Shown here: positions 15,805 to 32,754 of the stretch, one piece after another
How positions within the stretch are numbered: the stretch's first letter is position 1
How the letters are laid out: every line of letters begins with the position of its first letter
DNA from: Daejeonella sp.
GTDB lineage: Bacteria > Bacteroidota > Bacteroidia > Sphingobacteriales > Sphingobacteriaceae
Assembly (NCBI RefSeq): GCF_030684675.1
Contig: NZ_JAUXXZ010000066.1
Location: 18,728 to 82,727 of the forward strand
DNA length: 64,000 bases
Reading direction: 5' to 3'
The notes under the pieces: generated by a model
Database searches by the model: none
Told to the model about the DNA's origin: nothing
Seen by the model: only the letters and a program-made list of their open reading frames with translations
Position numbers and translations under genes: made by a program

Positions 15805-16031
15805 TTTTATTTTGAATAGTTAATAATTATTTCCAGAATTTTTCCTTTACATAATCAAACTCTCTAGAAATGTTGAATAAACTAATATAAAGTTTTCTTC
15901 AGGTTATCAATCACTGAGAAATCAGAACCAACTGATTATCAAAAATTTACTCAATAAAAATGCCCTGATCTTTTAGCCTAAGCCCTTGTATTATTGGCCA
16001 AATAATTCTCCTTAAAATGCACTGTCAAATA

Positions 16032-17687
16032 TTAACTTGACTGTGGCCGGTGTTTTGGATAATTAATGGGCTTTTTATTCTGAGAGTATTTGTGCTTTTT
16101 AGCTGTGAATTTGGCAGTATTAAACTCATCAAAATCCATCTCGCCTGCTAAAACACCAGAATTAATACTTCCCTGCATTGTGGTCAGAATTCTGTCTCCC
16201 GGCACATTATAATTACACAAGATTTTTACCTCATTTCCATCAATGCTCCCGGAGAAAGGGCGACTTGAAAAATCTGATTTAAAAATACCGGTAATCCAGT
16301 TTCCATCCTGATTATCTATGAATAAATGCTGGGTTACTTTGCTACTGTAGTATTCAACTTCCATATCCCATTGCCCAACCATATTCATCACCGGATTTTT
16401 CATTGCGGGTATAACTTTAGGCTGCCTTTTCCTCGATAAAACTTCATGGATACGATTTGCTGCCACTTTATCATTTCCCTCAATCATCATATACCCCACC
16501 AGGGTAATACCCGTAAGTCCGGCTTCATCTTTGCCAACCTGAACTGCAATTCGAGGAGCAATTGTTCCAAGTTCTTCAGCAACATCCTCACCGGTGACAT
16601 GCAGTTGTTCAGGATTCCACCTGATGTGGAGGTATGGAGTAACATGGTGAATCAATTCCGGATCAGGCCTGGTAATCGTTGTTTTAATCCCATTGATAGT
16701 TGACACCTTTTTGTTGATTGTTTCAAGCCAGGATACCCAGGTGTTCATTTCTTTCAAGTGGTCAAGCTTAACCCATGCTTCAACTGCTGCCAGCATTCCT
16801 ATATGCTCTTCCCGTCCAACCTTATTGTCTCTCCCAAAACCATGGTGCGGTGAATTTACCTGATGGGCAGACATCAGGAGATCTTTCCTGCCTAAAATCA
16901 ATCCCGAACAACTTGGTGCTTTTATTCCTTTTCCACCACTGTAACCTACTACATCAGCTCCCTGAGCTAAATGAACATCCGGAATGGTAAGAATATGAGC
17001 AGCAGCATCAACAAAGACAGGAATATTTAAAGGCTTTGCAATTTTTGAAACACTTGAGATTGTAAATTCATCTTCCGAAGGCGTCATATAAATCATTGCC
17101 GTCCGGGAATTAATACTTCTTTTTAATTCATCAAGACTTTCAACGGTGATTACTTTTACACCGGCATTTCTGACCGCATGATCATAAACATTTCGGCAAG
17201 ATAGCGGAATGATTACCTCAGATTTTGCAAATCCGGTCAGATCCGGAATTCTCAACAATTTCTCCGGATCCCCACCTGTCAGACAGGCCGCAGTAACCAT
17301 CTTGATACCGGCTGCGCAACCTGCTGTAACAATACCCCATTCAGCTCCTGTCAGTTCTGCTAACCTTTTCCCAATCCCAAAAGCCAGTTCATCCATCTGA
17401 ACATTCAGGGTAGAAACAGACTCCATCGCTAATCTGACTTCTTTCCTCTCGATAGAACCACCCATAATTGTATTAGTACCCTTACAATTCACAAAAGGCT
17501 CAACACCGATAGATTTTAGTAAACTTTCACCCTTTTTTACAAGTTCTTCATCAATTACTCTTGAAACTTCCTCTAAATGATCCTGGATTCCATTAATATT
17601 GAAAGAACTCTCGTTCATTGGTGCAGCAACAGCACTCCCGGCAAAAGGCAATAAGGTCAAGCCCTTAATTATTTCTCTTCGTTTCAT
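16032..17687 (-). CDS. SelA/DgaE-like PLP enzyme, long form, Tat signal
   Basis: MKRREIIK; SGGKGIKAP; closely similar to 12037..13701. Confidence 0.85.
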   Translation of the reverse strand: MKRREIIKGLTLLPFAGSAVAAPMNESSFNINGIQDHLEEVSRVIDEELVKKGESLLKSIGVEPFVNCKGTNTIMGGSIERKEVRLAMESVSTLNVQMDELAFGIGKRLAELTGAEWGIVTAGCAAGIKMVTAACLTGGDPEKLLRIPDLTGFAKSEVIIPLSCRNVYDHAVRNAGVKVITVESLDELKRSINSRTAMIYMTPSEDEFTISSVSKIAKPLNIPVFVDAAAHILTIPDVHLAQGADVVGYSGGKGIKAPSCSGLILGRKDLLMSAHQVNSPHHGFGRDNKVGREEHIGMLAAVEAWVKLDHLKEMNTWVSWLETINKKVSTINGIKTTITRPDPELIHHVTPYLHIRWNPEQLHVTGEDVAEELGTIAPRIAVQVGKDEAGLTGITLVGYMMIEGNDKVAANRIHEVLSRKRQPKVIPAMKNPVMNMVGQWDMEVEYYSSKVTQHLFIDNQDGNWITGIFKSDFSSRPFSGSIDGNEVKILCNYNVPGDRILTTMQGSINSGVLAGEMDFDEFNTAKFTAKKHKYSQNKKPINYPKHRPQSS

Positions 17688-17868
17688 CAGTTTATTTTTA
17701 TGGTTTTTATACTGTGCGGGATGGAAATTTTTATGATTAAAATTAACAGTCGCTAAGAATTTTTATGTTTATTTTAATTATACCAGATTAATTTAAGAAT
17801 CAATAATATATGTACTAAAAAAATCCTTCCAATTTTAGGTCATCTTATTTAATGTTTTTTATATTGTA

Positions 17869-19110
17869 TTACCACCTGAATTGATTTCCTTCACGAAAGA
17901 AATTATTCAGTGGCGTTGCAATCCCATTCAAATCATAGACGATCCTGCCTCCCTTGATGGTCATTTCGCATTCAAACTTTTTATTGCCTGTCATTTTAAA
18001 ACCTGCAGTCTCATAAAAACCAAACTTCCCTTCCCGCAGACTGAATACCACCAGATCAGCAATTGCTCCGGGTGAAAGATGCCCAAGTTCTTCCCGTTTA
18101 ATTGCTTTTGCCGGACTCCAGGTGCTTGCTTTTATTATCTCCTTCAAACTCATTCCCATGGCCAGAAATTTAGACATTACATTCATCATATCCTTCATGA
18201 ATGCATTAGTACTTCCGGCAGATAGATCAGTACTGATTGTGTTTGGCAAAAAACCGGCTTTCATTGCAGGGATGGCATTTGAATACCTGAATGCAGAACC
18301 ATGACCAACATCGAAAATTACACCCCGTTTCTGGGCTTCCGGGAAGGCTGGTTTGATTAAAGAGCTTTGCTGGTCAACAATCATATCCCGGGCATTGATA
18401 TCTTCAATGATGGTATAGGTATGCGTGTAGATATCACCTGGCCTCATGTGTTTGGTAAATAAGTCTCTAAGTGATGGATATGGATGATTACGACCACCAT
18501 CCAGCATGATTGGCATATTGGCAATATTGCCAGCCTCAACTCCACGGTCTACCGCTGTCCAGTCGGGTCCAACGAAATCAACTTTAAAACCGACGATGTC
18601 TTTATTAGCTAAAGCAAGTTTAGCCGACTCGGAAGCAATTTTATCCCCTGTACTCTTTTCGTTTGCACCACCTTTATAATCTCCTCCCCTAATATTCAAA
18701 AAAGCCAGAACCCGGGTAGTTGATTTATCAATAATCTGCTTTTTGAAATTAGCAAAGGATTCATAATCAGAATCTCCGGCATCGACAATGGTTGTAACCC
18801 CAACCCTGAAAGTATAACCATCAGGAAGGGTAGAGCCCAGACGTGAATGAATATCAATTAAGCCTGGTGCAACGTACATTCCTGCAGCATCTACCACCTG
18901 AGTGGCCTGATCAGCATTAATATTTTTTGCAATTAATGCTATTCTGCCATCATTGAGGGCAACATCCAGTACTTCATCAATATTATTTTTGGGATCAATT
19001 ACATGCCCGCCCTTGATAATTATCCCATAGACCTTACTGATTTGCTGTGCGGATAATGAAAGACTGCATAGCCAAAGGGCCAGAACAAATAAGTGCTTTA
19101 GTTTAAACAT
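17869..19110 (-). CDS. Amidohydrolase-family protein (COG3964-like) with degenerate HxH motif, Sec signal
   Basis: Same scaffold as its paralogues but PGLIDIHSR replaces HxH and KVDF replaces KVAH. Confidence 0.8.
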   Translation of the reverse strand: MFKLKHLFVLALWLCSLSLSAQQISKVYGIIIKGGHVIDPKNNIDEVLDVALNDGRIALIAKNINADQATQVVDAAGMYVAPGLIDIHSRLGSTLPDGYTFRVGVTTIVDAGDSDYESFANFKKQIIDKSTTRVLAFLNIRGGDYKGGANEKSTGDKIASESAKLALANKDIVGFKVDFVGPDWTAVDRGVEAGNIANMPIMLDGGRNHPYPSLRDLFTKHMRPGDIYTHTYTIIEDINARDMIVDQQSSLIKPAFPEAQKRGVIFDVGHGSAFRYSNAIPAMKAGFLPNTISTDLSAGSTNAFMKDMMNVMSKFLAMGMSLKEIIKASTWSPAKAIKREELGHLSPGAIADLVVFSLREGKFGFYETAGFKMTGNKKFECEMTIKGGRIVYDLNGIATPLNNFFREGNQFRW

Positions 19111-19119
19111 TGCGCAAAA

Positions 19120-20145
19120 TTATCTTTTAAGTGGGACTGCATTTTTTGTGATATAATCATCCTGATTTGAATGGAGCGGGCCAATGTAATGGAATCGTTC
19201 TGCCCATTCCAGACCATATTTTTCACCAATTTTCTTGTCAGAGGGGGCAAATCTCAATCTGGGGGATTCAATATCCAGAACGAAATGCTTGATATAATTA
19301 AAATCAGCAGTCCTGTCATCATCCCCAAGAATAGGAAGGCTTTTACCCTCAGCGGCCAGTTTCTTCCTGAGTATTGATCCGTTATTACCTGCAGGGCCCT
19401 GAGTGACATTAACCATGTTAGATTCGACTTTTTTATCTATGTACTTTGAGATATCTACAATTCTATTGACATATTGCGGACCTCTTCTGGTAAAGAAATA
19501 TCTTTCAGCAACGCTATGTGGCTTAACAAGATCCAAGTGTTCAGGATAATCGAGATGACTGGCTGCCGGAGTAATGGCTGCTTCAACTGCACGACCAGTG
19601 ATATAATGATCAGGATTATTTTCATAAGGCGCCCAGGGGTCATAACATATAACCGTATCAATCTTCAGCATTCGGATTAAAAAGATCATTCTGGCTTTGA
19701 TTTCCTGAATGTTATTCTCATCCATATTATGATTCCTGTAATTCAGGTGATAGGTTTTTTTTAAGCCCAGAACCCTTGCAACCGCCTCAGTATCAGCTTC
19801 ATTATTGGCTACTACTTCACCATAATTTTTTCCGCTTCCGGCGGCATCGTCATTAGTGGTTCTGATCAGGTAACCGGTATAACCTTCATCAATTAATTTG
19901 GCTACAGTTCCCCCTGCAAAAATTGGAATGTCATCGCAGTGCGGCTGAATTACTGCTAAAACTTTCCCCTGATGGGGCTTGCCACTGACCGGCCGCTCAA
20001 TGATCACCTCATCAAAAACCGTTTCATTATCATTTTTATCAATTGGCACTGCTTCTTTGTTGTTAATAGCTGCAACAGTAGCTCCCGGAACCAATAAGGC
20101 ACCGCTGGTAGCCAGTGTTTTCTCTAAGAAATTTCTTCTCTTCAT
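19120..20145 (-). CDS. PIG-L/LmbE-family deacetylase, Tat signal
   Basis: QPHCDD (HxDD) and NPDH motifs; the likely start MKRRNFLEK is a strong Tat motif (the ORF track starts at 20175). Confidence 0.85.
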   Translation of the reverse strand: MKRRNFLEKTLATSGALLVPGATVAAINNKEAVPIDKNDNETVFDEVIIERPVSGKPHQGKVLAVIQPHCDDIPIFAGGTVAKLIDEGYTGYLIRTTNDDAAGSGKNYGEVVANNEADTEAVARVLGLKKTYHLNYRNHNMDENNIQEIKARMIFLIRMLKIDTVICYDPWAPYENNPDHYITGRAVEAAITPAASHLDYPEHLDLVKPHSVAERYFFTRRGPQYVNRIVDISKYIDKKVESNMVNVTQGPAGNNGSILRKKLAAEGKSLPILGDDDRTADFNYIKHFVLDIESPRLRFAPSDKKIGEKYGLEWAERFHYIGPLHSNQDDYITKNAVPLKR

Positions 20146-20776
20146 AATAAAATGTTTTAACCAAGGACAATTCAATGCCTGACATTTATCATTCTAATTA
20201 AATGGTATTTACGTTAAACAATTTCGACAAAAAAATATTGATTTCTAATTTATTTTAGATTTTACCTTAATAAGGTCCCGTCATACTATGAACAGTGGAA
20301 AGGATCACATTCAACCTGAGTATAGAATTATGGATTATGTATTCCCAATCCAATAAAAATGCTTGTATTGCATAATCCCAACTTATCAAAAAGAGATGAT
20401 GGTTGAAAACACCTAATGTAATATTTGATCTAAAATTGCCTAAAGGCCTGTGATCTTTTATCAGTAATCAAAAGTATAATTGAGAATTTTGATTGCCTGA
20501 AGATTATAAATATAAAACTGCATCAAACAGTTGAAAGAAAAAATAGATTACCCAATACTTATAAAAAAAGATTTTAATACTTATACCTATTTGAGCATTA
20601 ATAAATCAATATTGAAACTCAAATAAATTTAATTTACAATCTTTTAGTTAAAATGTTTTGACTTTTAACTTGGAAAAATGATTCTATAGATTCTGTTTCC
20701 GGATATTAATCATCCTTTTAAAGCTTTGGAAATTTATTAAGCAAAAGTTCAAAAAAGCCATAGGAAGGGTTATTGC

Positions 20777-21910
20777 CTAAAATTGTATCAAGCAGGTGAC
20801 TGCTGGTACAGTTATTTGTTCTCCTGTAGGCCTAAGTTTACCAGTTTTATTATTTCTTTCGAAAACTACTACATTATCTGTATTTTGATTTGCGGTTAAA
20901 GCATATTCTCCTTTTTTATCAATCATAAAATTTCGTGGATGTTTACCACCTGTGTTTTCATGACCCACTAAAGTAAGCATGCCATTCTTTGGATTCACCT
21001 CATAGATAACAAGACTTTCGTGCCCACGATTTGAAGCATATAAAAATTTTGCATCGGGGGAAAAATGAATATCTGCTGCAGAATTCCTTTCAACAAAGCC
21101 TTCGGGGCGCATATTTAGACGTTCTAAAGCTTTTAGTTCCCCAGTCCTTTTATTAACAAGGAAAGAAGCGACGGTTGATGATATTTCTTCAGCAGAGTAA
21201 GCAAATTTACCATTGGGATGTATTTTGAAATGTCTTGGCCCTGAGCCGGGAGTATTCTTTACAAATGGAACCACTGCAGAGCTAAGTTTGCCATTTTCAT
21301 TTACCTTGTATATCATAATTTTGTCTATGCCAAGATCCGATACATAAAGGAACCTACCATTATGTGATGGAATTGCTGAATGTATATAGGATCGCTCCTG
21401 CCGTCCTACAACAATACTGCTACCCGTATGCTTGATAAAATCAGAGGCTTTAGCTAAGGACCCATCCTTGTTTATTGGGAAAACAGATAATGAGCCATCT
21501 CCATAGTTTGAAACATAAGCAAATCTGCCTTTGGGATCTACGCTTATGTGTGCTGGGCCCCTCCCACCGCAAGATTGCTCATTAAGCTTGGTTAATAACC
21601 CGCTTTGAGCATCAATATTAAATGACATGACACTCCCATTGCCATCAGACAATGTACCCTTACTGTAAATGGAATACAAGATTTTATTATCAGGGCTTAG
21701 AGCTAAAAAACCTGGGCCGGTACCCTCAGTAACTGTTTGCAACTCCTTAAATTTCCCCTGAAGTCGGTCAAATTCGAACACATATATACCTTTACTGCCT
21801 CTAACCGAGGAAGTACCAGCATATATAATATCTCTTAAAGGTAATTGAGCTGAAATATCTTTAACAATCAAAACTATGAGAAGGGCAAGAAAAATAATTT
21901 TTGTTTTCAT
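20777..21910 (-). CDS. Lactonase, 7-bladed beta-propeller (Pgl/YbhE-like), Sec signal
   Basis: GPAHISVD, VSNYG, DLGID, GSGPRH, SNRGH and GKHPRNF motifs; signal peptide ending ISA-Q. Confidence 0.88.
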   Translation of the reverse strand: MKTKIIFLALLIVLIVKDISAQLPLRDIIYAGTSSVRGSKGIYVFEFDRLQGKFKELQTVTEGTGPGFLALSPDNKILYSIYSKGTLSDGNGSVMSFNIDAQSGLLTKLNEQSCGGRGPAHISVDPKGRFAYVSNYGDGSLSVFPINKDGSLAKASDFIKHTGSSIVVGRQERSYIHSAIPSHNGRFLYVSDLGIDKIMIYKVNENGKLSSAVVPFVKNTPGSGPRHFKIHPNGKFAYSAEEISSTVASFLVNKRTGELKALERLNMRPEGFVERNSAADIHFSPDAKFLYASNRGHESLVIYEVNPKNGMLTLVGHENTGGKHPRNFMIDKKGEYALTANQNTDNVVVFERNNKTGKLRPTGEQITVPAVTCLIQF

Positions 21911-22106
21911 TGTGCATATGATTGAATTCCTTTAATGTATTCCTATTATTAGCTTTTAATGTTATTTAATCGATTTCTCCAACTGCTCAAATACCTCCGG
22001 CTCGGTGAATTTATCTTAAAAAATATTGCTAATTCGACTCATAAAATAGTCCGCTTCAATAATCAAAGCACAAGACCTTAATAGTCAAGACCAAATGAGC
22101 AAAAAA

Positions 22107-23357
22107 TCAATCCGGGATACTAATACCATTAAGATCCCAAACTATATTACCAGCACGAATAGTAAGTTCAGCTTCAAGTTTTTGAGTTCCTTTCACTTTA
22201 GTTCTCCTGACATCAGTAAAACCGAAATCGCCATTCCTTACGCTGAATATCGCTACATCTGCCTCCGCTCCAACAGATAAATTACCCAAATCTTCCCTTT
22301 GTATTTGCTTTGCAGGAGTCATTGTAGTTAGTTTAAAAACAGTTTGCAGATCCATCCCCATAGCCATGAATTTTGACATTACATTCAAAAGATCTTTCAT
22401 GGCAGCATTCTTACTTCCATTATTAAAATCAGTACTAATGGAATTTGGAACAAAACCCTGTTTTAATGCAGGTACAGCCTGAGAAAATGCAAAAGCACCT
22501 GCTCCATGACCCACATCGAAAATTATTCCGTTCTTTTGAGCTTCAATTACAAATGGCTTAAGTTTACCATTTTCGTCAACAATTGTTTCTCTGCTAGAAG
22601 CCCCTCCGGCAAAAGTATGAGTGAATATATCACCAGGACGGAGATGCCTTGTAAATAGCTCTTCAATAGATTGTGGAGGACTATGCTCTCCAAAATCAAC
22701 CATGACCGGCATATTTACAATCTTACCTGCTTCAACAGCCCGGTCAACAGAAATCCAGTCGCCACGTTTATAGTGAGATACCTTTATACCAATTATATAT
22801 TCCTTGTTTTTCTTTACCGACATTGCCGTCAGAGTTGCATCCATATCACCAGTATTCTGCTCCCAGGGTTCCCTGCCAAGGTACCCTTCACCAACAATAT
22901 TCAGCCAGGCAAGTACCCTTGTCCTGGACCTGTCGATTGTGTGAGCTTTAAAAGCATTAAAAGATTTCCATCCAGAGCTTCCGGCATCAATTGATGTAGT
23001 GACACCTGTTCTAAATGTAAAGTCGTCGGGCATTGGATCGCCTTTTCTTTCTTCAGATATGCCGGCAAAATGATGGGCATGCATATCAATTAATCCCGGG
23101 GTTACGTATAAGCCCTTCGCATTAATAATCCTTTTGGCAGAATTTACGGGAATATTGGCGACAACCTGAGAAATCTTCTTACCAGTAATTGCTACATCCA
23201 TTATAGAATTGATATTATTTTTAGCGTCAATGACATGACCACCCTTTATTAAAATATCTATCTGCTGAGCCTTAGTTACTGTTAATCCCACTGCAAAAAA
23301 TATCATAATTGTCATTAAGCAGGAATTACTATATTTCTTTAATCCATTCATTTTCAT
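22107..23357 (-). CDS. Amidohydrolase/deacetylase-family metallohydrolase (COG3964-like), Sec signal
   Basis: PGLIDMHAH, KVSH, RPGDIFTH, FDVGHG and ISTD motifs; signal peptide ending TKA-Q. Confidence 0.88.
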   Translation of the reverse strand: MKMNGLKKYSNSCLMTIMIFFAVGLTVTKAQQIDILIKGGHVIDAKNNINSIMDVAITGKKISQVVANIPVNSAKRIINAKGLYVTPGLIDMHAHHFAGISEERKGDPMPDDFTFRTGVTTSIDAGSSGWKSFNAFKAHTIDRSRTRVLAWLNIVGEGYLGREPWEQNTGDMDATLTAMSVKKNKEYIIGIKVSHYKRGDWISVDRAVEAGKIVNMPVMVDFGEHSPPQSIEELFTRHLRPGDIFTHTFAGGASSRETIVDENGKLKPFVIEAQKNGIIFDVGHGAGAFAFSQAVPALKQGFVPNSISTDFNNGSKNAAMKDLLNVMSKFMAMGMDLQTVFKLTTMTPAKQIQREDLGNLSVGAEADVAIFSVRNGDFGFTDVRRTKVKGTQKLEAELTIRAGNIVWDLNGISIPD

Positions 23358-23386
23358 TTTGATTAATATTGATTTTAATTGAGTAA

Positions 23387-24958
23387 TTATTTCTTTTTTA
23401 ATGGTACAAGCCGAACAATGTGTCCCGTATCTTCGATCATTAGGTAAATAAACCCATCTGATGGAACCTTTACATCCCTTATTCTACCAATATTTTCGAG
23501 GAGTATTTCATCATGTACTGGCTTCCCATTGTTAAAAACTGTCCTATTCAATCTTTTATGTACCATCGCTCCAACAAACAAATTACCTTTCCACTCTGGA
23601 TAAATATTGCTAAACACGAAGTCAAAGTCAGAAGGTGCAATAGAAGGTGTCCAATGATGGGCAGGTGCCTCAATTCCCACTCGAACTGTATCCCCGGAAA
23701 TAAGAGTACCATCATAGTTTCTGCTAAAAGTTACATCTGGCCAGCCATAGTTCCCTCCTGATTTTAGCAGATTTAGTTCTGAGCCACCCATTTCACCGTG
23801 TTCAGTTTCCCAAATTTCTCCCGTTAACGGATGTCTGATCAAACCTTGTGGTTGACGATGACCATAGGTATAAATTTCAGGTAGTACCTTTAAACTATCA
23901 ACAAATGGATTATCATTTGGTATCGTTCCATCATCTTTAAAACGCATTACCTTACCCGATGGATTTGTTTTATCCTGAACTGTTTTCCACCTGTGCCGAT
24001 CATCTATTGTGCGCTGTCCTACGGTGAAATAAAGAAACCCATACTTATCAAAAGCAATTCTGCTTCCGAATGTTTCACCTCCTTCTTTAAAGGGACCAGC
24101 TTTATAGATTATTTTTTCATCGAAAAAATGATTTCCAGTAAGCTTAGCCCTCATTAGTACAGTATAGCCCCCCTCAGGTTTTTTAGGTTCTATGTAATAG
24201 GACAAATAAATCAATCCATTCCTGGAAAATTGAGGATGTAACTTCAGATCGCGTAAACCCTTTGGTACATTACCGGAAACAGAATTAGCCACCAACTTGC
24301 CATCTTTAACTATTCTGAGATTTCCTGAGCGCTCAGTGATCAACACTCTATTATCGTGCAAAAACGCCATACTCCAGGGTCTTTGCAGACCCGAAACAAC
24401 TGTATCAACCATGAAAACTAATTCCTCAGAAGATATAGCATTGATAACTTTTTCGGGAATTGGAAAGTATTTACTCTTAAATCTGCTCTCAATGTTAAAA
24501 TCAGATACTGGAAGTAAATTTTTTGGTTTCGAAACAACTCGTGCATTTTTTTCAGAGACTAACTGCCTGATATAAGACACTAGTTGCCATCTTTTCTCAG
24601 CAGATAATGATTCCTTATAAGATGGCATACTTCCTCTGCCTTCGGATAGCTTCCAAAAGAGCGCTCCATCCTTTTGATCAGAAACAAGTGGAAGATGAAA
24701 ATTTGCTGGTTTAACCGATAATTCGCCACCAAGTACCCCATTTCCATAGCCTGTATCTCCATGGCATGATTGACAATACTGTAAATAAAGTTCCTTTCCT
24801 TGTACCAGGGTATTTGGGTTCTGACGAAATGTCGATTTTAAGCCATCTGTCCATGCAGGAGCTTTCCAGGGTTCTTGCAGCGGTTTCAAACTGAGAAGTA
24901 AAACCAAAACAATAGCAGATGAGAAAAGTACGCTGATGAAAATATTGTTTTTATTCAT
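23387..24958 (-). CDS. Cytochrome c fused to a PQQ-dependent sugar dehydrogenase (GSDH/Asd-like) propeller
   Basis: N-terminal hydrophobic segment, CQSCH haem motif with distal GSMP; LQRPWSMAF, GHRQPQG, GGNYGWP and GRIRDV motifs. Confidence 0.82.
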   Translation of the reverse strand: MNKNNIFISVLFSSAIVLVLLLSLKPLQEPWKAPAWTDGLKSTFRQNPNTLVQGKELYLQYCQSCHGDTGYGNGVLGGELSVKPANFHLPLVSDQKDGALFWKLSEGRGSMPSYKESLSAEKRWQLVSYIRQLVSEKNARVVSKPKNLLPVSDFNIESRFKSKYFPIPEKVINAISSEELVFMVDTVVSGLQRPWSMAFLHDNRVLITERSGNLRIVKDGKLVANSVSGNVPKGLRDLKLHPQFSRNGLIYLSYYIEPKKPEGGYTVLMRAKLTGNHFFDEKIIYKAGPFKEGGETFGSRIAFDKYGFLYFTVGQRTIDDRHRWKTVQDKTNPSGKVMRFKDDGTIPNDNPFVDSLKVLPEIYTYGHRQPQGLIRHPLTGEIWETEHGEMGGSELNLLKSGGNYGWPDVTFSRNYDGTLISGDTVRVGIEAPAHHWTPSIAPSDFDFVFSNIYPEWKGNLFVGAMVHKRLNRTVFNNGKPVHDEILLENIGRIRDVKVPSDGFIYLMIEDTGHIVRLVPLKKK

Positions 24959-25707
24959 TATTGAAATTTAAGCAAACCAAAAAATTGAGGGAGATGGAAT
25001 GTAGGCTTAGGTGCATCTATCACCGACCAGGTTGCATGGTGAGGATTTGAATTTATTTCTGCGATTTTGTAAAAATTAGCTCTCCAAATTACTCCCTTTT
25101 CAGGGCGAGCTACCTTCGAATAATTTTCGAGCATATTAATTGGAATTTTATACTCTACTGTCCAGGTTATGGGTTCTGATATTTCAGGATCTACCTGACT
25201 AGGAAGTGAATGTCCTATGGTGATTTTCTTAATATCTTCAATTACAGGCCGTTTACGTGGTATAGAATTATATCCCAATAAAGGTGTCCCACCACAATTT
25301 ACCTCAAGATTAAAATAACTCTTAGGCATAGCTGGATCCGGTGAAAAAAAGAATTCAACGGCTGAATCTTTCCAAACAGGTCCGTTAATCTCAGTAGTTA
25401 TACTTCTTACATAACGATCCTCCACCCTAAAAATAACATATATATTTTCATTATCATACATCAGCTTTGCATTTACGCGGGGACGAAATTTCGGATTTTC
25501 ACGGATGAAATTATTGACCTCGATAGGCTTTACTTTTCGCCATTGAGGTTTATTCCAATTCCCATCTATCTTTAGCTCATGCTTTAACCTAATAACCTTA
25601 TATGTTTTCGCTTCATTTTTTAAGTTTAAAGAACTTTCCTGAGCGCTGGCCATTTGCGGAATCCACAAACTCAGAATAAGGATCAATGTCAATTTATAAG
25701 TATTCAT
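24958..25707 (-). CDS. Carbohydrate-binding family 9-like (DOMON/CBM9-like) secreted protein
   Basis: KIDGNWN..W, YDNENIYV, VWKDSAVEFF, YFNLEVN and WRANFYK motifs; stop overlaps the next start (TAATG). Confidence 0.75.
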   Translation of the reverse strand: MNTYKLTLILILSLWIPQMASAQESSLNLKNEAKTYKVIRLKHELKIDGNWNKPQWRKVKPIEVNNFIRENPKFRPRVNAKLMYDNENIYVIFRVEDRYVRSITTEINGPVWKDSAVEFFFSPDPAMPKSYFNLEVNCGGTPLLGYNSIPRKRPVIEDIKKITIGHSLPSQVDPEISEPITWTVEYKIPINMLENYSKVARPEKGVIWRANFYKIAEINSNPHHATWSVIDAPKPTFHLPQFFGLLKFQ

Positions 25708-25804
25708 ACAGGTTGAGCTTGTTTGAAATTTATTCCATAGAGAACATTGATCATTCTAAAGCTTTGAAACATTGAATAATAGTAACCGAAGTATGATATC
25801 AGGA

Positions 25805-25844
25805 TGAACAGCATCCTTGACATTATTATCTCGGATGCTGTTCA
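25805..25844. other. Stable hairpin downstream of susD2
   Basis: Perfect 12-bp inverted repeat TGAACAGCATCC / GGATGCTGTTCA with a 16-nt loop; no U-tract on the sense strand, so it may stabilise mRNA rather than terminate it. Confidence 0.55.
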
Positions 25845-25866
25845 GTAATTAAAAAAACCTGTGTAC

Positions 25867-27423
25867 TTAATTTTTATCCCACCAAAGAGGTGTTGAAGCT
25901 AAATCAGGTCCCCCCAAAAGAGCTACTGCATCTTTCACAGCCTGCCCGTTCCTATCCTTGTCATATTCAAGAAATACAATGCGACGTACAAATTTCCCAA
26001 CTGGAACATCGGGATTATCCGAATTAATCACATTATATCTTTTGGGAAAGCCTGATCTCCTGACCTCGGCCCAGGCTTCCTGTCCATCAGGGAATAAAGC
26101 CAGCCATTTTTGTGTTCCAATCTGTTCTCGCTGCTTAGTTGGATCACTAGAAAATTTTACAGGAATATCACTTATAGCAGGAGTATTAAAATATCCTCCG
26201 GGAGCAGAGGGAAGATTAGTACTATTTATATAACTATTAATAACTGTTACATCGGTAATGCCATTCGTTCGCATAGACATTTCAATACCTTTGGCATATA
26301 ATTCAGCCGCAGTCCCGCCCATGTTCCAGCCATTTACGGCACCTTCTGACCGGAGTAAATACGCTTCGCCAGAACGAATAACCGTCATTGGCTCGGTAGT
26401 CATTTTAACTGGTGTAAAACGGTCGTTTAGATTAGAAGCGTTATTATATCCATTTTGAGGTAAAACAATTTGAGCTGGAATCATCCCATTTCTTAACCCA
26501 CGGTATTGCTTATCATTAACAGCTGGTTGAAAATAGCTACTAAGGCGTGGGTCATCATAGCCTTTCAAGAAGCTCTCCATAGTTTGGCTCATCCTGAATT
26601 CATTCCAAGCTGAGATAAATCCAAGGGCATTCGGACGGGCGGGATCAACTTTCAAATAGGCATCATCAGCAACAACTGTCATAACACCGTTAGCAACGGC
26701 TGCCTCAGCCTCAGTCTTTGCTTTAGCAGCATCTACTTTGGAAATTCTCAACGCAAGACGTAGACGTAACGTATTTGCAAACTTAAGCCATTTGGCATTA
26801 TCCCCGTTGTAAATCAAATCCTGAGATCCATAACCAGGTAGTGCAATATTATTTTTAAGATCAGCACTTGCTTCGGTTAATTCCTTGAAAAAATCGTAAT
26901 AGATATCCTTCTGTGAGTCATAAGCAACTGCTTTTTCCGTAGAGCCAATTTTTGAGTAAGGTACAGGTCCATAATAATCTGTAATACGCATTAAACTAAA
27001 TACTTTCCAAATTCGCGCAATTGCATTCAAAGGTTTAGTTTCGGGTGTCTGTGTTTGCTTAATAATTGTTAATAATGACGGCATGGTAAATACATATGAC
27101 CGTATCCAATGATTTTGTAAGCGAGCCTGAGTTAAATCAAAACGATCCGATGCGAAGGATGTTTGAGTTACAGCAAAATACTGAGCATATAAATCAGCAA
27201 ATGCGTTCACTCCTCTTTGATATTGTGTTCCGCCGCCCAGAGCAACTCCCTGCCATTGTGCATTTGGGAACAGACCCTTCAAATCAGTTGGACTTAATGT
27301 CGTAACGGCTGTAGGGTCGGTATTTCTTTCGTCAAACTCCTTTGTACAGCTACTCAGAATAGCTGCAGCAAGCACTAAAAATAGCATATTAAGCTTTAAC
27401 GGAATATTTATATAATTTTTCAT
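25867..27423 (-). CDS. susD: SusD/RagB-family lipoprotein
   Basis: Lipobox AILSS-C, DYYGPVPYS and EAWAEVRRSGFP motifs, C-terminal PLWWD. Confidence 0.93.
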   Translation of the reverse strand: MKNYINIPLKLNMLFLVLAAAILSSCTKEFDERNTDPTAVTTLSPTDLKGLFPNAQWQGVALGGGTQYQRGVNAFADLYAQYFAVTQTSFASDRFDLTQARLQNHWIRSYVFTMPSLLTIIKQTQTPETKPLNAIARIWKVFSLMRITDYYGPVPYSKIGSTEKAVAYDSQKDIYYDFFKELTEASADLKNNIALPGYGSQDLIYNGDNAKWLKFANTLRLRLALRISKVDAAKAKTEAEAAVANGVMTVVADDAYLKVDPARPNALGFISAWNEFRMSQTMESFLKGYDDPRLSSYFQPAVNDKQYRGLRNGMIPAQIVLPQNGYNNASNLNDRFTPVKMTTEPMTVIRSGEAYLLRSEGAVNGWNMGGTAAELYAKGIEMSMRTNGITDVTVINSYINSTNLPSAPGGYFNTPAISDIPVKFSSDPTKQREQIGTQKWLALFPDGQEAWAEVRRSGFPKRYNVINSDNPDVPVGKFVRRIVFLEYDKDRNGQAVKDAVALLGGPDLASTPLWWDKN

Positions 27424-27472: not shown

Positions 27473-30400
27473 TTAAAATGATGCTTTCAAATTAAGACCA
27501 AATGTTTTTGAAAATGGAAGTGCGATATACTCATTTCCTCCCCTGCCACGTGCAATATCAGGATCGAATGGAGTTGACTTGCTAAAAAAGAATAAATTTC
27601 TTCCAATCAAGGAAATCCTTGCACCCTTAATATATTTCGTCTTGGTCAGCAACTTTGTTGGAATTTTGTAATCCAATGTCATTTCTCTTAATCTCATATT
27701 CGTTGCAGAATAATTGTATTCTTCACCAGTAGGTTTCCTGTCACCTATGGTACTGAAATAGGCTTGAGATGTTATTGAAGTCGTATTCTTAGTACCATCT
27801 GCGCGGTAAGCATCTAATACAATACCTCCTTCACGACCCTCTAAAGAACGTTTCGAGTGTCCATCCGCATCTAACAATGGTTGAGTACCCGCAATTATAT
27901 TCCCCCCATTTCTGTAATCGATTTGAAAACCAAATGACAAATTTTTATAGTTAAAACTATTTGTTAAACCTGCCATGAGATCAGGGTTAAAATTACCGGC
28001 ATACGTGGTTAAACCCGGGGTAAGTAATGGACGCCCCAGATTGTCGACCAATTTGCCTCCTTGTGCATTCCTTTGCCAGCCTTTCACATACAATTCACCA
28101 AAAGGCCTGCCTACTTCCACCCTTGTGGTAACGATATCGTCGCTTTGTATTATTACCGACTTTTGTTCATCAGTAATTCGTACAACATTGTTGTTATTCT
28201 TGGAATAATTAAATGTTGCATCCCATGAAAAACTTCCAAGTTTGATAGGGGTAACATTCATGATAAGTTCGATACCGTTGTTCTCAATCAATCCGGCATT
28301 AATATATCTTTGATCGTAAGTTGAAGCTGACGGCGCCCCTATGAGAAGCAACTGATTGGTCGTTTTGGTTTTATAATATGTTAAATCAAAACCTAAGCGA
28401 TTGTTGAAAAATCTCCAATCCAAGCCTGCTTCAAAGGAAGTGGTTAATTCAGGTTTATAATTATCAAAAGTCTGAATTGTTGGAGTTGAAATAAGACCTC
28501 CAATACCAACCCTGTAATACTCTTTTCCAAAATAGGCATTACCTCCGTTTCCGGCATTAGCTGACGAAATTCTAGCTTTACCGTAAGAAACCCAGGAAGG
28601 CAATTTAACCATATCAGATACAATTGCTGTTAAACCAATTGAAGGATAAAAAACCGATTCTTCTCCTCCTGGAAGCGCTGAAGACCAGTCATTTCTTCCT
28701 GTAACATCCAAATACAAATAATTCTTGTAGGCAAAAGTAAGTGAGGAATAAACAGACTGAATAAGAGGGCTTTGAGAATATGTATTAACAGCCTGAATAG
28801 CCCTTGCATTACCCAAATAGAAAAAATCCTGCTTATTTAAACCATTGGTATTACTGGTAGTCCCGCGATTTGTACTCCCCTGGGTATATCCTCCAATATG
28901 ACCGGATAAATTTATGGTTTTTGTCAGATCCCTTTTAAATGTTAATAATCCATCAATGTTTGAGTTGATATTATTATTAAAACCCATAGAATATGTTGAC
29001 CCTACAGTACTCCAATATGAATCAGAATAGGTCTTATTTTCATTTTCAGAAAAAGTCCTGTTTATATTACCTCTAATTTGAAAAGATAACCAATTATTAA
29101 AATCGTATTTTGCTGAAAGGAGTCCTACTACACGACTCACATTTTCGTTATTTAGATTTCGGTACATGTAGAAATAAGGATTCCCGATAATTGAGGACCC
29201 CGGTTTCCAATAATTCTGCCGGAGATTACCGTTTACATCTGTATACATATAATTCCTCATCTCACTTGTTGGAATTGAAACAGGTGTTCTATAAATAGAA
29301 GTAATAGCATAGCTTACCGGGCTATTATCAACATTTTCTGCATTATAAGTTAACTTGGTATCAATAGAAAGTTTTTTAGATATTGTATTGTTTACTCTTA
29401 ATGTCAGGTTATGTCTTGTAAGATCATTATTCATCATCACTCCCTGAGCCATTATATTCCCGTATGAAAAGAATGTTTGCATTTTTTCAGTTCCGGTGTT
29501 GATACTAAAAGAGTTATTATAAGTTGCCCCTGTTCGAAAGAAATCCTTTAAGTTATCTGGTTGCCCAGCGAGTGATATGGTCTTTCCATTCCATAATGCA
29601 ACGCTTTGACCTGTCATTTTAGGGCCATAGCTATGCTCTGAAGATGGAACATAAATTCCAGCATCGCCCTGCGCATATTCACTTTGAAGCTCAGTATGAA
29701 TATCAGCCTGATCAAAGAGAACCCCTCCATTAAAATCAACAGATGTTGTTCCAGCCTTTCCCCGTTTAGTTGTAATAAGAATTACTCCGTTCTGACCAGC
29801 GCTACCATACAGTGCAGCTGCCGCTGCACCCTTAAGTACAGTAATACTCTCAATATTATCTCCATCTTCAATACCTATACTTCCAGGAACACCATCTGTA
29901 ACATATAAAGGTGCATTATTACCTGTTATTGAGCGGTTTCCACGGAGTAAAACCGTTGATCCTCCTCCAACACCACCTGACCCTCTGGTTATAGTCATAC
30001 CTGCAACTTTTCCCTGCAAAGCATTTACCACATTAGTTCCTGTAGCCTTTGTTAGTTCTTCTCCTTTAACATTCTGTGCAGAGTAAGTTAAAGATTTCGA
30101 TTCCCTTGAAATACCCAAAGCAGTTACAACTACCTCGTTCAACACTGTATTTGCAGTTTCCAATTGAATGTTAATTGTGGTTCTGTCACCTACAACAAGC
30201 TCCTGGGTATTATAACCTATGTATGTAAATACCAAAACACTGCCATTATCAGGAACATTTATAGAGTATTTTCCATCAAGATCAGTTGTGGCACCGGTAT
30301 TAGTACCTTTAATTTTAATACTTACCCCAGGGAGAGTTTCTCCTTTGGAATCAGTAACCTGTCCGCGGATAAGAATATCAGCAACGAAGTTTATATTTTC

Positions 30401-30841
30401 CTGCGTTTTAATTTGTTTTACAGGCTTGTTGTTGTTTGATTGAATCAGTACATTATTATCAACTTGCTTATAAGAAAGATGCGTGTTCTCCAAAAGCATG
30501 TTAAGCACCTGCTCCACTGTATAAGTTGATTGACTAATATTTTTTGAAGGTAAGGTCATCAATTCCCCTTTGCGATACACAAAGCGAAAGGGAGTTTGTT
30601 GTTCGATTTTTTTAAACGCAGACAATAAAGTCTCGTTTCTGAGCTCTAACCTAACTTCTACTGAACCAATCTTCTGGCTATTAGCTGGTAAAGCCAGTAG
30701 CATCTGTAAAGAAACGAGTAGAAAGGCAATGGATATAAAGCCAATTCGCATAATATGTATTATATAGTTTTTGAGGTTAGAGCTACCTGTGATAGTATTC
30801 ACTATGGCAACACCTGAGGTATTGTTTGTAAAATATTTCAT
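27473..30841 (-). CDS. susC: SusC/RagA TonB-dependent transporter with STN domain
   Basis: STN-like segment (AFKKIEQQTPFRFVY), plug motif LYVTDG..IESITVLKGAAAAALYGS..NGVILITTK, terminal F. Confidence 0.93.
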   Translation of the reverse strand: MKYFTNNTSGVAIVNTITGSSNLKNYIIHIMRIGFISIAFLLVSLQMLLALPANSQKIGSVEVRLELRNETLLSAFKKIEQQTPFRFVYRKGELMTLPSKNISQSTYTVEQVLNMLLENTHLSYKQVDNNVLIQSNNNKPVKQIKTQENINFVADILIRGQVTDSKGETLPGVSIKIKGTNTGATTDLDGKYSINVPDNGSVLVFTYIGYNTQELVVGDRTTINIQLETANTVLNEVVVTALGISRESKSLTYSAQNVKGEELTKATGTNVVNALQGKVAGMTITRGSGGVGGGSTVLLRGNRSITGNNAPLYVTDGVPGSIGIEDGDNIESITVLKGAAAAALYGSAGQNGVILITTKRGKAGTTSVDFNGGVLFDQADIHTELQSEYAQGDAGIYVPSSEHSYGPKMTGQSVALWNGKTISLAGQPDNLKDFFRTGATYNNSFSINTGTEKMQTFFSYGNIMAQGVMMNNDLTRHNLTLRVNNTISKKLSIDTKLTYNAENVDNSPVSYAITSIYRTPVSIPTSEMRNYMYTDVNGNLRQNYWKPGSSIIGNPYFYMYRNLNNENVSRVVGLLSAKYDFNNWLSFQIRGNINRTFSENENKTYSDSYWSTVGSTYSMGFNNNINSNIDGLLTFKRDLTKTINLSGHIGGYTQGSTNRGTTSNTNGLNKQDFFYLGNARAIQAVNTYSQSPLIQSVYSSLTFAYKNYLYLDVTGRNDWSSALPGGEESVFYPSIGLTAIVSDMVKLPSWVSYGKARISSANAGNGGNAYFGKEYYRVGIGGLISTPTIQTFDNYKPELTTSFEAGLDWRFFNNRLGFDLTYYKTKTTNQLLLIGAPSASTYDQRYINAGLIENNGIELIMNVTPIKLGSFSWDATFNYSKNNNNVVRITDEQKSVIIQSDDIVTTRVEVGRPFGELYVKGWQRNAQGGKLVDNLGRPLLTPGLTTYAGNFNPDLMAGLTNSFNYKNLSFGFQIDYRNGGNIIAGTQPLLDADGHSKRSLEGREGGIVLDAYRADGTKNTTSITSQAYFSTIGDRKPTGEEYNYSATNMRLREMTLDYKIPTKLLTKTKYIKGARISLIGRNLFFFSKSTPFDPDIARGRGGNEYIALPFSKTFGLNLKASF

Positions 30842-31035: not shown

Positions 31036-32052
31036 TTATTCACAACCTGAACCATCCAGAACTACGACTTTATTGTCCCTGAACTGGTACTTAATCTGAT
31101 TAAACTCAGCAATAATATTTAATATCTGTGGAAGGCTTTGAGATTTCAAAAATGTAGCACTGAATTTGCAAGTTTTAATCTGCTCGTTTGAAAATACAAT
31201 AGAAACTCCGAACCTTTCCTGAAGCTGCTTAGCCACATCCTTAATACTTACATCATCAAAATAAATATCTTCGTTTGTCCACTTGATATATGACTCTGCC
31301 TTAACCGGAGTCTTAACTACATTATTATGTTCCTCATTAAAAACAATTTGCTCATTCGGTGTAATCACATTAAAAGTCTGGTTTTCATCCCCGACTTCAA
31401 CCTTTCCCCTGGTAACCGTAACTGTAACTGTCTTTGCACCGGCACTTGACTTAATGTTGAAAGCGGTTCCAAGAACTGTAGTTTTCAACTTCCCTGTATG
31501 CACAATAAAAGGCCTCTCTGAATCATGGTTAATATCAAAATAGGCCTCCCCCATAAGGTAAACTTCACGTTTCGCATCAGAATTGAAATTTTCAGCAATT
31601 TCAATCTGACTGTTTTCATTAAGGATAACTGAGCTACCATCGGGAAGGTTAATAAACCGACGGGTAGGCTTTTCCACTATTTTTGGCTTTTCTAAAATCA
31701 CCTTAACCTGTTGAGATTCTGAAATTCCAGATCTGCTTAAATAAAACATTGCAGAAAGTCCGATTATAAATATGGCAGCTGCCGATCTATACCAAAAACT
31801 TTTACTTTTGAGTTTTAGAAATGACTCTTTTTCTCTTGAAGAAGCCATTATTGAATTAAAGATGCGCTCAGCTTTTTCTTCAGGAATTGGAGCGTCTGAA
31901 GCAACCTGATTCCAGAATTCATCCAAAAGAATCTTTACCTCATCATCAAAGTCTTCCCGCTTCATCATTGCAAGAAATTCCTCAATTTCATCAGAGGAAG
32001 CCGTCTTTTTGATAAACTGTTGAAAAAGGTACCTGAACCTATGAATTGACAT
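31036..32052 (-). CDS. fecR: FecR-family anti-sigma factor
   Basis: TM segment, LPDGSSVILN, GEAYFDI and TTVLGTAFN motifs. Confidence 0.92.
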   Translation of the reverse strand: MSIHRFRYLFQQFIKKTASSDEIEEFLAMMKREDFDDEVKILLDEFWNQVASDAPIPEEKAERIFNSIMASSREKESFLKLKSKSFWYRSAAAIFIIGLSAMFYLSRSGISESQQVKVILEKPKIVEKPTRRFINLPDGSSVILNENSQIEIAENFNSDAKREVYLMGEAYFDINHDSERPFIVHTGKLKTTVLGTAFNIKSSAGAKTVTVTVTRGKVEVGDENQTFNVITPNEQIVFNEEHNNVVKTPVKAESYIKWTNEDIYFDDVSIKDVAKQLQERFGVSIVFSNEQIKTCKFSATFLKSQSLPQILNIIAEFNQIKYQFRDNKVVVLDGSGCE

Positions 32053-32172: not shown

Positions 32173-32754
32173 TCAAATATTAGAAAATAAGATATAAATA
32201 TTCAGCACCAAATAGTTTGAAACAACTAGCCGAAGGGTACTTAATGCCTTTTTTAAATGAGCTTTAACCGTATTTTTAGAAAGATTAAGGTGGTTCGCTA
32301 TTTCCTCGTACTTCATACCTTCATCCCGACTCATGCTAAATACAATTCGCTGCTGAGGTGGTAACTGATTAACAGCCTGACCTAGAATATGCTGATATTC
32401 CTTATAAATCACTGTTTCTTCTGTGGTATCCTGATATTCGGAATTATTTAAGCTGAGTTTACCAATTATCACAGCTTCCAGAGCTCTGCGTTTGATCGCA
32501 TTAAATGCTCTGTTTCTAACTAATGTATACAGGTACGAACCAAAATGAACTATTTCGCCAAGACCCTGACGATTACACCAAACCTTCAGGAATGCATCCA
32601 TCACGATCTCCTCTGAAAGCTCTTCATCATCAGTTATCCTGAAAGTATAGTTGTAAAGCCTGCTACTATAATGGTTAAAAATTTCACGGAATGCCAGCTC
32701 ATTACCCTCTGAAACAAGGCGTAAAATTTCTGACTCATTCTGTAAAATTTTCAT
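32173..32754 (-). CDS. ECF sigma-70 factor (Bacteroides expansion type)
   Basis: AFREIFNHY..EIVMDAFLKVW and LPPQQRIVF..YEEIA..LSKNTVK motifs. Confidence 0.92.
   Translation of the reverse strand: MKILQNESEILRLVSEGNELAFREIFNHYSSRLYNYTFRITDDEELSEEIVMDAFLKVWCNRQGLGEIVHFGSYLYTLVRNRAFNAIKRRALEAVIIGKLSLNNSEYQDTTEETVIYKEYQHILGQAVNQLPPQQRIVFSMSRDEGMKYEEIANHLNLSKNTVKAHLKKALSTLRLVVSNYLVLNIYILFSNI

Follow-up and report, generated by a model that had tools for sequence, protein, structure and literature searches.

In this work we examined a gene from a 64,000-nucleotide stretch of a Daejeonella sp. genome (contig NZ_JAUXXZ010000066.1, positions 18,728 to 82,727; hereafter the window), located at 23387-24958 on the (-) strand and encoding a 523-residue protein (P0001) in which a cytochrome c domain is fused to a six-bladed beta-propeller of the GSDH/YliI type. 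This quinohaemoprotein candidate belongs to a monophyletic clade, confined to Bacteroidota and Balneolota, in which the catalytic His of the six-bladed pyrroloquinoline quinone (PQQ) dehydrogenases and its acidic partner have been replaced together with further active-site residues. We favor, at a probability of roughly 55%, the reading of the protein as a PQQ/haem c dehydrogenase of the periplasm by which an N-acyl or amino sugar is oxidised at C1, with Glu389 as the likeliest base.

Biosensors make use of six-bladed PQQ dehydrogenases, whose textbook mechanism depends on one His. The many homologs lacking this His raise the question of how they work, one previously posed for the more than 25% of fungal AA12 sequences that are without it and often have Leu instead (PMC6881810). 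The clade described here offers a clean case, in which the His-Asp dyad has been swapped as a package and one invariant, clade-specific Glu lies in the metal loop. Turnover should be directly visible through its natural haem c fusion, which is also of a kind sought for direct-electron-transfer electrodes.

Replacement of the catalytic dyad across a clade

To place the active site, the protein was aligned by HMMER with five solved relatives, namely 7CDY, 2G8S (Escherichia coli YliI), 3A9G, 2ISM and the soluble glucose dehydrogenase (sGDH) of Acinetobacter calcoaceticus. In all five alignments Thr296, within the motif ETFGSR (24059-24076; this and all other window features lie on the (-) strand), occupies the position of the catalytic His. 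The corresponding sGDH residue is His144 in KDHQSGR, the catalytic base, with Ca2+ and Arg228 assisting (PMC6881789; PMC6881810). The absence of this His had been proposed in an earlier note made from the letters of this DNA alone, and the alignments, including those to Acinetobacter sGDH and E. coli YliI, bear this out. A shift of the alignment that would supply a His is ruled out, as the five alignments are concordant and a His is found within residues 289-303 in just 1 of 121 relatives.

The changes extend beyond this residue. Gln315 (24014-24016) stands where the catalytic His would have its acidic partner (Asp163 in sGDH), as judged by comparison with relatives that retain the His. Within GHRQPQG (23843-23863), Arg368, the equivalent of sGDH Arg228, is kept and Gln369 replaces Asn229; the roles of both residues in sGDH have been described previously (PMC6881810). 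In the catalytic-metal loop, EHGEMGGSE (23777-23803), Gly388 (= Gly247) is kept, while Glu389 takes the place of Pro248 and Ser393 that of an Asp. The catalytic Ca2+ of sGDH is bound by the backbone carbonyls of Gly247 and Pro248 (PMC6881810), and backbone ligation of this kind may persist in the loop despite the change from Pro to Glu. Arg236 (24251-24253) lies at the site of sGDH Leu80. Finally, the last-blade Arg pair of GRIRD (R492 and R494; 23474-23488), which by analogy with the family probably holds the PQQ carboxylate, is present in 121/121 relatives and in 103/104 canonical representatives.

To assess how widely these changes are shared, we compared two sets of sequences. A search of 5.8 billion proteins returned more than 2,800 matches, the best 120 of which are 48-95% identical to the window protein and all have the same architecture of N-terminal cytochrome c and GSDH propeller. 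The second set comprised 104 His-type representatives drawn from the nearest 50%-identity clusters of the wider family. Position 296, which is His in the latter by definition, is never His in the 121 relatives (Trp in 85, Thr in 26, Phe in 9 and Ser in 1). The post-Gly position equivalent to Asp163 is Ile in 67 and Gln in 45 relatives and acidic in only 2/121, versus 103/104 His-type representatives with Asp or Glu. Position 369 is Met in 61, Gln in 44 and Val in 16 (Asn in 99/104 of the His-type set), position 389 is Glu in 121/121 (Pro in 98/104), and position 236 is Arg in 121/121 (Leu, Met or Phe in 98/104). The equivalent of sGDH Gln246 is also altered in part of the clade. By contrast with these replacements, Arg368 (121/121), Gly388, Glu394, Tyr404, Trp406, Arg492 and Arg494 are kept, and there is no variation in the haem ligands Cys62, Cys65, His66 and Met111.

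These comparisons indicate that the family motifs given in the earlier note, xHFGSR, GHRNPQG and EHGPxGGDE, were correct for the His-type representatives, whose consensus is xH[FY]GSR, GHRNPQG and EHGPxGGDE (the Asn of the second and the Pro of the third at the frequencies given above, the Asp of the third in 104/104), that both GHRQPQG and EHGEMGGSE are real deviations from them, and that GRIRD is retained as had been stated. What did not hold was the note's view of the changes as a peculiarity of this single protein. The whole clade instead shows them in coordinated form, and they include the loss of the Asp163 partner and the gain of Arg236. Three subtypes can be distinguished: a T-type with ETFGSR and EHGEMGGSE, which includes the window gene and to which Ser393 is confined; a W/Cys type with EHGExGGCE; and a W/F type with WYGSK and EFGELGGDE.

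Absence of the His is by itself common in the wider family, occurring in 47 of 151 aligned sequences (~31%; the 150 nearest cluster representatives and the query). What sets the clade apart is thus the combination of changes, together with two newly gained invariant charges, Arg236 and Glu389. In a FastTree phylogeny of 114 propeller domains, the sequences with Arg236 and Glu389 make up one side of a branch with 100% local Shimodaira-Hasegawa (SH)-like support and a long stem (0.4). The remaining His-less sequences are dispersed over the tree, indicating that the His has been lost many times outside the clade. Besides the fused forms, the clade contains unfused forms (from Balneolaceae, Sphingobacteriaceae and an unclassified Bacteroidota metagenome-assembled genome, or MAG) and a 50%-identity cluster representative, P0122; its basal Balneolaceae members are without the cytochrome fusion. 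One full member with CBM9, amidohydrolase and SelA-like neighbours (locus L038) is found on CAVSLZ010000007, from a MAG labelled uncultured Actinomycetota, and this is more likely a mis-binned Bacteroidota contig than a case of horizontal transfer.

The window gene is under strong purifying selection, with a ratio of nonsynonymous to synonymous substitution rates (dN/dS) of 0.09 against its 95%-identical ortholog in L020. A one-off mutation or a pseudogene is thus ruled out, as the substitutions are fixed clade-wide and the dN/dS is low.

Domain architecture and relation to known enzymes

Re-translation confirmed the coordinates of the gene, which consists of one intact 523-codon open reading frame (ORF). 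The frame begins with a hydrophobic leader (residues 1-25; 24884-24958), modelled as a helix over residues 3-22, which is either a cleaved Sec signal or an uncleaved signal anchor. It is followed by a class-I monohaem cytochrome c domain (residues ~40-135; 24554-24841), over which two Pfam profiles match residues 52-133 above their curated cut-offs (Cytochrome_CBB3, PF13442, 44 bits versus 27; Cytochrom_C, PF00034, 27 bits versus 21.3). The haem attachment motif CQSCH (C62, C65, H66; 24761-24775) has both Cys and the His in 121/121 relatives, and Met111 of an MP motif (24626-24628; M111 and P112 in 121/121) is the probable sixth haem ligand, as expected from the architecture of class-I cytochromes c. 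The domain therefore combines CxxCH, a distal Met and a profile match, which together define class I c-type cytochromes. Its nearest solved structures are the monohaem ActE subunits of alternative complex III (6F0K_E, E 1.6e-12; 6LOD_E; 6BTM_E), followed by cytochromes c552 and CcoP of cbb3 oxidases.

The propeller (residues ~181-520; 23399-24418) matches the full GSDH profile, PF07995 (positions 1-332 of 332; residues 191-516; E 6.5e-102), above its curated cut-off, and its matches by sequence in the PDB include 7CDY (3e-58) and 2G8S (2e-54). An AlphaFold2 model built on a 107-sequence alignment has a pLDDT (predicted local distance difference test) score of 93 and a predicted template modelling (pTM) score of 0.83. 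Foldseek places this model at a template modelling (TM) score of 0.88 to both 7CDY, a glucose dehydrogenase, and E. coli YliI/Asd (2G8S), with 3A9G, 2ISM, 3DAS, sGDH, HHIP, fungal AA12 proteins and six-bladed lactonases (7RIS) ranking lower. The ORF, the Pfam matches and the model thus agree with the earlier reading of a CQSCH cytochrome c domain fused to a GSDH propeller, and all of the motifs quoted there are found in the same ORF (CQSCH at 62-66, ETFGSR at 295-300, GHRQPQG at 366-372, EHGEMGGSE at 386-394 and GRIRD at 491-495).

Profile match and fold place the protein in Pfam GSDH, yet it lacks two defining catalytic features of YliI and sGDH, the His and its acidic partner. With YliI and 7CDY (32-40% identity) it shares the six-bladed GSDH propeller, the motifs GHR, NYGWP and GRxRD, a periplasmic location (predicted for the window protein) and a host that does not make PQQ. 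YliI differs in having the His of HFGGR, a GE acidic partner, GIRNPQG, EHGPRGGDE and no cytochrome domain, whereas the window protein carries Thr, Gln, Gln and Glu there, in addition to Arg236 and the fused haem c domain. Acinetobacter sGDH (1C9U, 1CQ1), the template for the mechanism in which hydride is transferred to C5 of PQQ with the assistance of Ca2+ and Arg228 (PMC6881810), is more distant at ~20% identity. The fold and the equivalents of Arg228, Gly247 and Glu253 are conserved, while His144, Asp163, Asn229 and Pro248 are replaced throughout and Gln246 in part of the clade; the window protein scores 105 bits against NCBIfam TIGR03606 (sGDH-B type), below the cut-off of 434.55.

The fungal AA12 enzymes, CcPDH of Coprinopsis cinerea and TrAA12 of Trichoderma reesei, resemble the window protein in combining a six-bladed PQQ domain with a cytochrome domain and in direct electron transfer between them (PMC6881789, PMC6881810). 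The catalytic His is not universal in AA12, and an acidic side chain of the AA12 metal loop binds the catalytic Ca (PMC6881810). In contrast to the window protein, however, the fungal enzymes are extracellular and their cytochrome is a b-type, DOMON-like AA8 domain rather than a c-type one. Membership of CAZy AA12 was rejected, given that there is no Pfam TrAA12 match and that 6JT5 and 6H7T are only 14-15% identical (TMq ~0.5, TMt 0.60-0.63). A type II or III quinohaemoprotein alcohol dehydrogenase was likewise rejected, as those enzymes are eight-bladed with a C-terminal cytochrome c while the window protein is six-bladed with an N-terminal one; the resemblance is limited to the logic of electron flow from PQQ to haem c.

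Partners or domains of the c-type cytochrome kind have been described for bacterial AA12-like six-bladed PQQ proteins, including examples from Sphingobacteriales and Chitinophagales and from carbohydrate-uptake loci (bioRxiv 10.64898/2026.07.10.737718). That set was chosen for having all nine PQQ-contact residues of CcPDH and metal motifs of the NERD...D type, whereas the clade described here resembles YliI, has EHGE or EFGE in its loop and is without the catalytic His. The general theme of cytochrome-linked six-bladed PQQ proteins is therefore already known, and the clade represents a well-delimited, uncharacterised subfamily within it whose active site has been rewired and whose predicted role is coherent.

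Conserved context, predicted reaction and competing explanations

Genome context provides an indication of substrate. When prokaryotic genomes were scanned at one per species, 80 loci were recovered (L- and C-numbers are our labels for loci and contigs). Thirty-one of these (L020-L050) belong to the clade and come from Daejeonella, a Pedobacter-labelled MAG, Parapedobacter, Sphingobacterium MAGs, Chitinophagaceae, Flavitalea and Balneolaceae, while the 49 comparison loci come from cyanobacteria, Chromatiaceae, Competibacter, Phycisphaerales and Vicinamibacterales. The Arg/Glu signature is found at 31/31 clade loci, and the His is absent from all except an outlier, L049. Arg236 is present in 31 of the 32 clade ORFs at these loci, its site lying outside the 5'-truncated ORF of L050, and in none of those at L051-L099. 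Most of the comparison loci retain the canonical His, Asp and Leu/Met, and their residue 389 is Pro, Ala or Ser. Six comparison loci, from Vicinamibacterales, an Acidobacteria MAG and a Pseudomonadales MAG, are independently without the His-Asp pair, and these have Met236 and no Glu389.

A SelA-like and/or an amidohydrolase gene lies within 7 kb of the dehydrogenase at 27/31 clade loci versus 0/49 of the remaining loci, and two of the four exceptions are on contigs that end no more than ~2 kb from the gene. Over the same distance, SelA-like genes occur at 22 of the clade loci, amidohydrolases at 15 (up to four in tandem at L029, L046 and L048), SusC/D at 12-13, CBM9_2 at 9, RidA at 6 and a lactonase at 4, and none of these neighbours is found at any comparison locus. 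The association extends to a W/F-type paralog on another contig (C47) of the window's own genome. It is also seen in Daejeonella lutea DSM 22385, where SelA-like, amidohydrolase, T-type, GH109-like oxidoreductase, W-type, two more propeller-cytochrome c and CBM9_2 genes occur together, the T- and W-type genes being separated by 3 kb.

In the window, the dehydrogenase is surrounded by a cluster encoding a lactonase, three COG3964 amidohydrolases, a PIG-L deacetylase, DgaE-like pyridoxal phosphate (PLP) lyases and RidA. Sec leaders are present on the amidohydrolases, the lactonase and the CBM9-like protein, and twin-arginine leaders (MKRR.IIKGLTLLPFA and similar) on the SelA-like, RidA and PIG-L enzymes. 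All of the pathway enzymes thus carry one leader or the other, so that the whole set is predicted to be exported, and the twin-arginine leaders imply transport of folded, cofactor-loaded SelA-like, RidA and PIG-L enzymes to the periplasm.

The closest named relative of the SelA-like enzymes is DgaE, a glucosaminate-6-phosphate deaminase, and the deacetylase, PLP enzyme and RidA neighbours match the experimentally established ong pathway of Pseudoalteromonas prydzensis, in which OngB (deacetylase), OngC (PLP deaminase) and OngD (RidA) act on N-acetylglucosaminate (GlcNAc1A) (PMC9537276). Together with the PIG-L and GH109-like neighbours, which point to N-acetylhexosamine (HexNAc), this match argues for an amino-sugar substrate. 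The ong pathway (PMC9537276) and the one predicted here from genes have in common that import is TonB-dependent, that an amino-aldonate is N-deacetylated and then deaminated by a PLP enzyme with RidA, and that the product is a 2-keto-3-deoxy acid. In ong, however, the aldonate is made extracellularly by a lytic polysaccharide monooxygenase and the catabolic enzymes are cytoplasmic, whereas here a PQQ-type dehydrogenase and a lactonase would make the aldonate, all enzymes have export signals, and the PLP enzyme is SelA/DgaE-like rather than OngC-like. The earlier note had suggested an amino sugar or a keto-acid as the altered substrate; the first suggestion gains strong support from the conserved context and the enzymes of the cluster, while nothing points to the second.

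These observations lend themselves to the following scheme. The SusC/SusD pair would deliver an N-acyl or amino sugar of the HexNAc or hexosamine type, and the propeller, most likely carrying scavenged PQQ and a divalent metal, would oxidise its C1 to a lactone, with Glu389, or a metal-bound water positioned by Glu389, as the general base. From PQQH2, both electrons would travel through the fused haem c to a terminal oxidase. Hydrolysis of the lactone would yield an N-acyl-amino-aldonate. In the periplasm, the exported neighbours (the lactonase, the deacetylases, the DgaE-like PLP ammonia-lyase and RidA) would turn the product into a 2-keto-3-deoxy sugar acid.

Since the His-Asp dyad is missing and position 296 shows no chemical consistency (Thr, Ser, Trp or Phe), the base must lie elsewhere. 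Glu389 is the leading candidate, being the sole invariant clade-specific acidic residue and located in the catalytic-metal loop, and we infer that its likeliest role is that of a substitute base or of a ligand organising a metal-bound water. There is a partial precedent in TrAA12, where Asp242 of the same loop ligates the catalytic Ca (PMC6881810). The alternative base suggested in the earlier note is therefore plausible. Conceivably, the extra carboxylate in the loop could also switch metal preference, for example to a lanthanide. When the lanthanide motifs NERD...D and HGRD...E (bioRxiv 10.64898/2026.07.10.737718) were considered, they proved to be AA12-like, with no confident placement on the EHGE loop, and this remains low-probability speculation.

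Continued turnover of a quinone cofactor by the propeller, with reduction of the attached haem, is argued for by the kept cradle of Arg residues, by the invariance of the haem site and by the fusion as such. ActE, c552 and CcoP-type domains, which the fused cytochrome resembles, feed terminal oxidases, and the genome contains a cytochrome c assembly gene and two haem-copper oxidases. Both the use of PQQ and the identity of the electron acceptor are inferred on these grounds. The cofactor would come from outside. A search for pqq genes, as the earlier note had proposed, did not find PqqC in the window's 99%-complete genome, although the same search recovered it at 348 bits from a Vicinamibacterales genome used for validation, and the sole PqqE-like match was a generic radical-SAM protein below the cut-off. 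Synthesis of PQQ by this genome was therefore rejected and the cofactor would have to be scavenged, as in E. coli, which is without pqq genes and uses YliI with imported PQQ (PMC13088180). The genome has ~8 strong and ~10 weak GSDH-family matches, suggesting heavy dependence on scavenged PQQ.

Several observations weigh against the assignment as a C1 dehydrogenase of N-acyl or amino sugars. Position 296 alternates between small polar (Thr, Ser) and bulky aromatic (Trp, Phe) residues, and substrates may vary by subtype. Glu389 may be a metal ligand only. The statistical support for the context linkage (Fisher p 2e-17) is inflated, as the relatedness of the genomes means that their independence is overstated. 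Three metagenomic loci (L011, L012 and L015) have the sigma-FecR-SusC-SusD-CBM9-dehydrogenase module alone, with no amidohydrolase or lyase within 10 kb. PqqC is missing from the window's genome, as it also is from D. lutea, and PQQ would need to be imported. Finally, a literature search yielded no study that characterises a member of the clade or one of the exported SelA-like/amidohydrolase clusters.

Among the alternatives, the best surviving, though in our view unlikely, is that the substrate is not an aldose hemiacetal but another intermediate of an N-acyl-amino-acid or amino-aldonate pathway (an amine, an aldehyde hydrate or a secondary alcohol), and that the hemiacetal-specific His-Asp base was discarded for this reason. 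In its favor are the tight link to SelA-like lyases and to multiple, sometimes tandem, amidohydrolases, the scarcity of lactonases (just 4/31 clade loci) and the additional alteration of the Asn229 and Gln246 equivalents. On the other hand, no six-bladed PQQ enzyme with such chemistry is known, lactonases are present in both the window cluster and the C47 paralog cluster, and the GH109-like and PIG-L genes point to HexNAc glycosides.

It is improbable that the propeller carries out no PQQ-dependent oxidation and is instead a binding module or a non-redox catalyst of the lactonase or lyase kind, with the cytochrome c serving another partner. Such a role could account for the loss of the dyad, for a host unable to make PQQ and for the basal Balneolaceae members without a fusion, and six-bladed lactonases (7RIS) are among the weaker structural matches. 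Yet Arg368, Arg492 and Arg494, which are conserved across the wider GSDH family, are invariant in the clade, the fused electron-transfer domain with its invariant haem ligands argues for redox turnover, the clusters already hold separate lactonase genes, and E. coli runs YliI on imported PQQ although it too is without pqq genes (PMC13088180).

The least probable explanation, that of an ordinary broad-specificity aldose (glucose-type) dehydrogenase like YliI, whose substitutions reflect neutral drift around a robust PQQ/Ca site and whose context is coincidental, fits the identity and structural similarity to 7CDY and 2G8S and the frequent loss of the His in the wider family and in AA12, but is countered by five active-site positions altered together and fixed in the clade, by the near invariance of the His and Asp in the His-type representatives (His in 104/104 by definition, an acid at the Asp site in 103/104), by the context linkage of 27/31 versus 0/49, and by at least four canonical His-type GSDH paralogs in the same genome that would serve ordinary aldoses.

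If the assignment to amino-sugar C1 oxidation is correct, the context suggests periplasmic respiration of amino sugars on scavenged PQQ by Bacteroidota of soil and fresh water, which would add an oxidative, glycosidase- and kinase-free route to the turnover of amino sugars and of chitin or peptidoglycan. More tentatively, and with odds clearly below even, the clade could represent a new catalytic class, a PQQ/haem c N-acyl-hexosamine (or amino-sugar) 1-dehydrogenase with a Glu-metal centre in place of His-Asp, that starts a fully periplasmic, kinase-free oxidative route of amino-sugar catabolism in Bacteroidota, wired to respiration.

Gene arrangement in the window and at related loci

The dehydrogenase is the sixth gene of a co-oriented run. 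Upstream of it are genes assigned by Pfam to an extracytoplasmic function (ECF) sigma factor (32173-32754), a FecR anti-sigma factor (31036-32052), SusC with an STN domain (27473-30841) and SusD (25867-27423), followed by one for a CBM9_2-like exported protein (P0271; 24958-25707; PF16011, E 5e-36) whose stop overlaps the dehydrogenase start by one base (TAATG), an arrangement of translational coupling. The same six-gene module, from sigma factor to dehydrogenase, is found at L011, L012, L015, L020, L023, L024 and L041, and the CBM9_2-dehydrogenase pair at L011, L012, L015, L017 and 9/31 clade loci. The only solved relative of the CBM9_2-like protein, 4JPQ (E 6e-24), is uncharacterised. A role for this partner as a haem-b, DOMON-type cytochrome was considered and seems less likely, as it has no invariant Met and its conserved residues are mainly Trp, Asp, Glu and Asn. 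We lean towards a binding protein, which may act as a substrate-binding or docking partner of these dehydrogenases. CBM9_2-like genes also adjoin weak-GSDH/AA12-like cytochrome c genes at C63:28342-28914 and C62:6485-7096, and in D. lutea at L018:5458-6225.

Downstream, a COG3964-type amidohydrolase/deacetylase gene (22107-23357; NF006689, 426 bits versus a cut-off of 371) begins 29 nt from the dehydrogenase. It opens a set of exported proteins identified by Pfam and NCBIfam (15331-23357) that continues with a 7-bladed lactonase, the PIG-L deacetylase (19120-20175), a second amidohydrolase, a 551-residue SelA/DgaE-like PLP enzyme and RidA. In total, the window encodes three long SelA/DgaE-like enzymes (12037-13701, 16032-17687 and 33404-35065) and two RidA proteins (15331-15804 and 32890-33357), all with the twin-arginine leaders described above. 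A promoter and terminator scan of 20000-26000 gave counts at chance and no (-) strand terminator within the operon, and a gap of 600 bp at 20176-20776 held nothing but ORFs shorter than 70 residues.

The W-type paralog cluster of the same genome (L013; C47:39894-53673) encodes an FG-GAP/ASPIC protein, the cytochrome c-GSDH fusion (GDWFGSK, EFGELAGDE), a long SelA-like enzyme, a PAP2/VCPO-like protein, two free cytochromes c, an SGL lactonase, RidA, a weak GSDH-like protein, an RraA-like protein and an SBF transporter. At L017:13196-21635, a CBM9-dehydrogenase-amidohydrolase operon adjoins a gene for an ABC-toxin/TcA-TcB-like protein of more than 3,200 residues, which is probably unrelated. The D. 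lutea locus (L018; NZ_FUYR01000001, ~1,924,000-1,944,000) forms a redox island with four consecutive propeller-cytochrome c genes, one T-type, one W-type and two AA12-like with a C-terminal cytochrome, and it also holds genes for a GH109-like NAD oxidoreductase, a 415-residue protein without a Pfam match, CBM9_2 and a large FAD/Fe-S/CCG oxidase.

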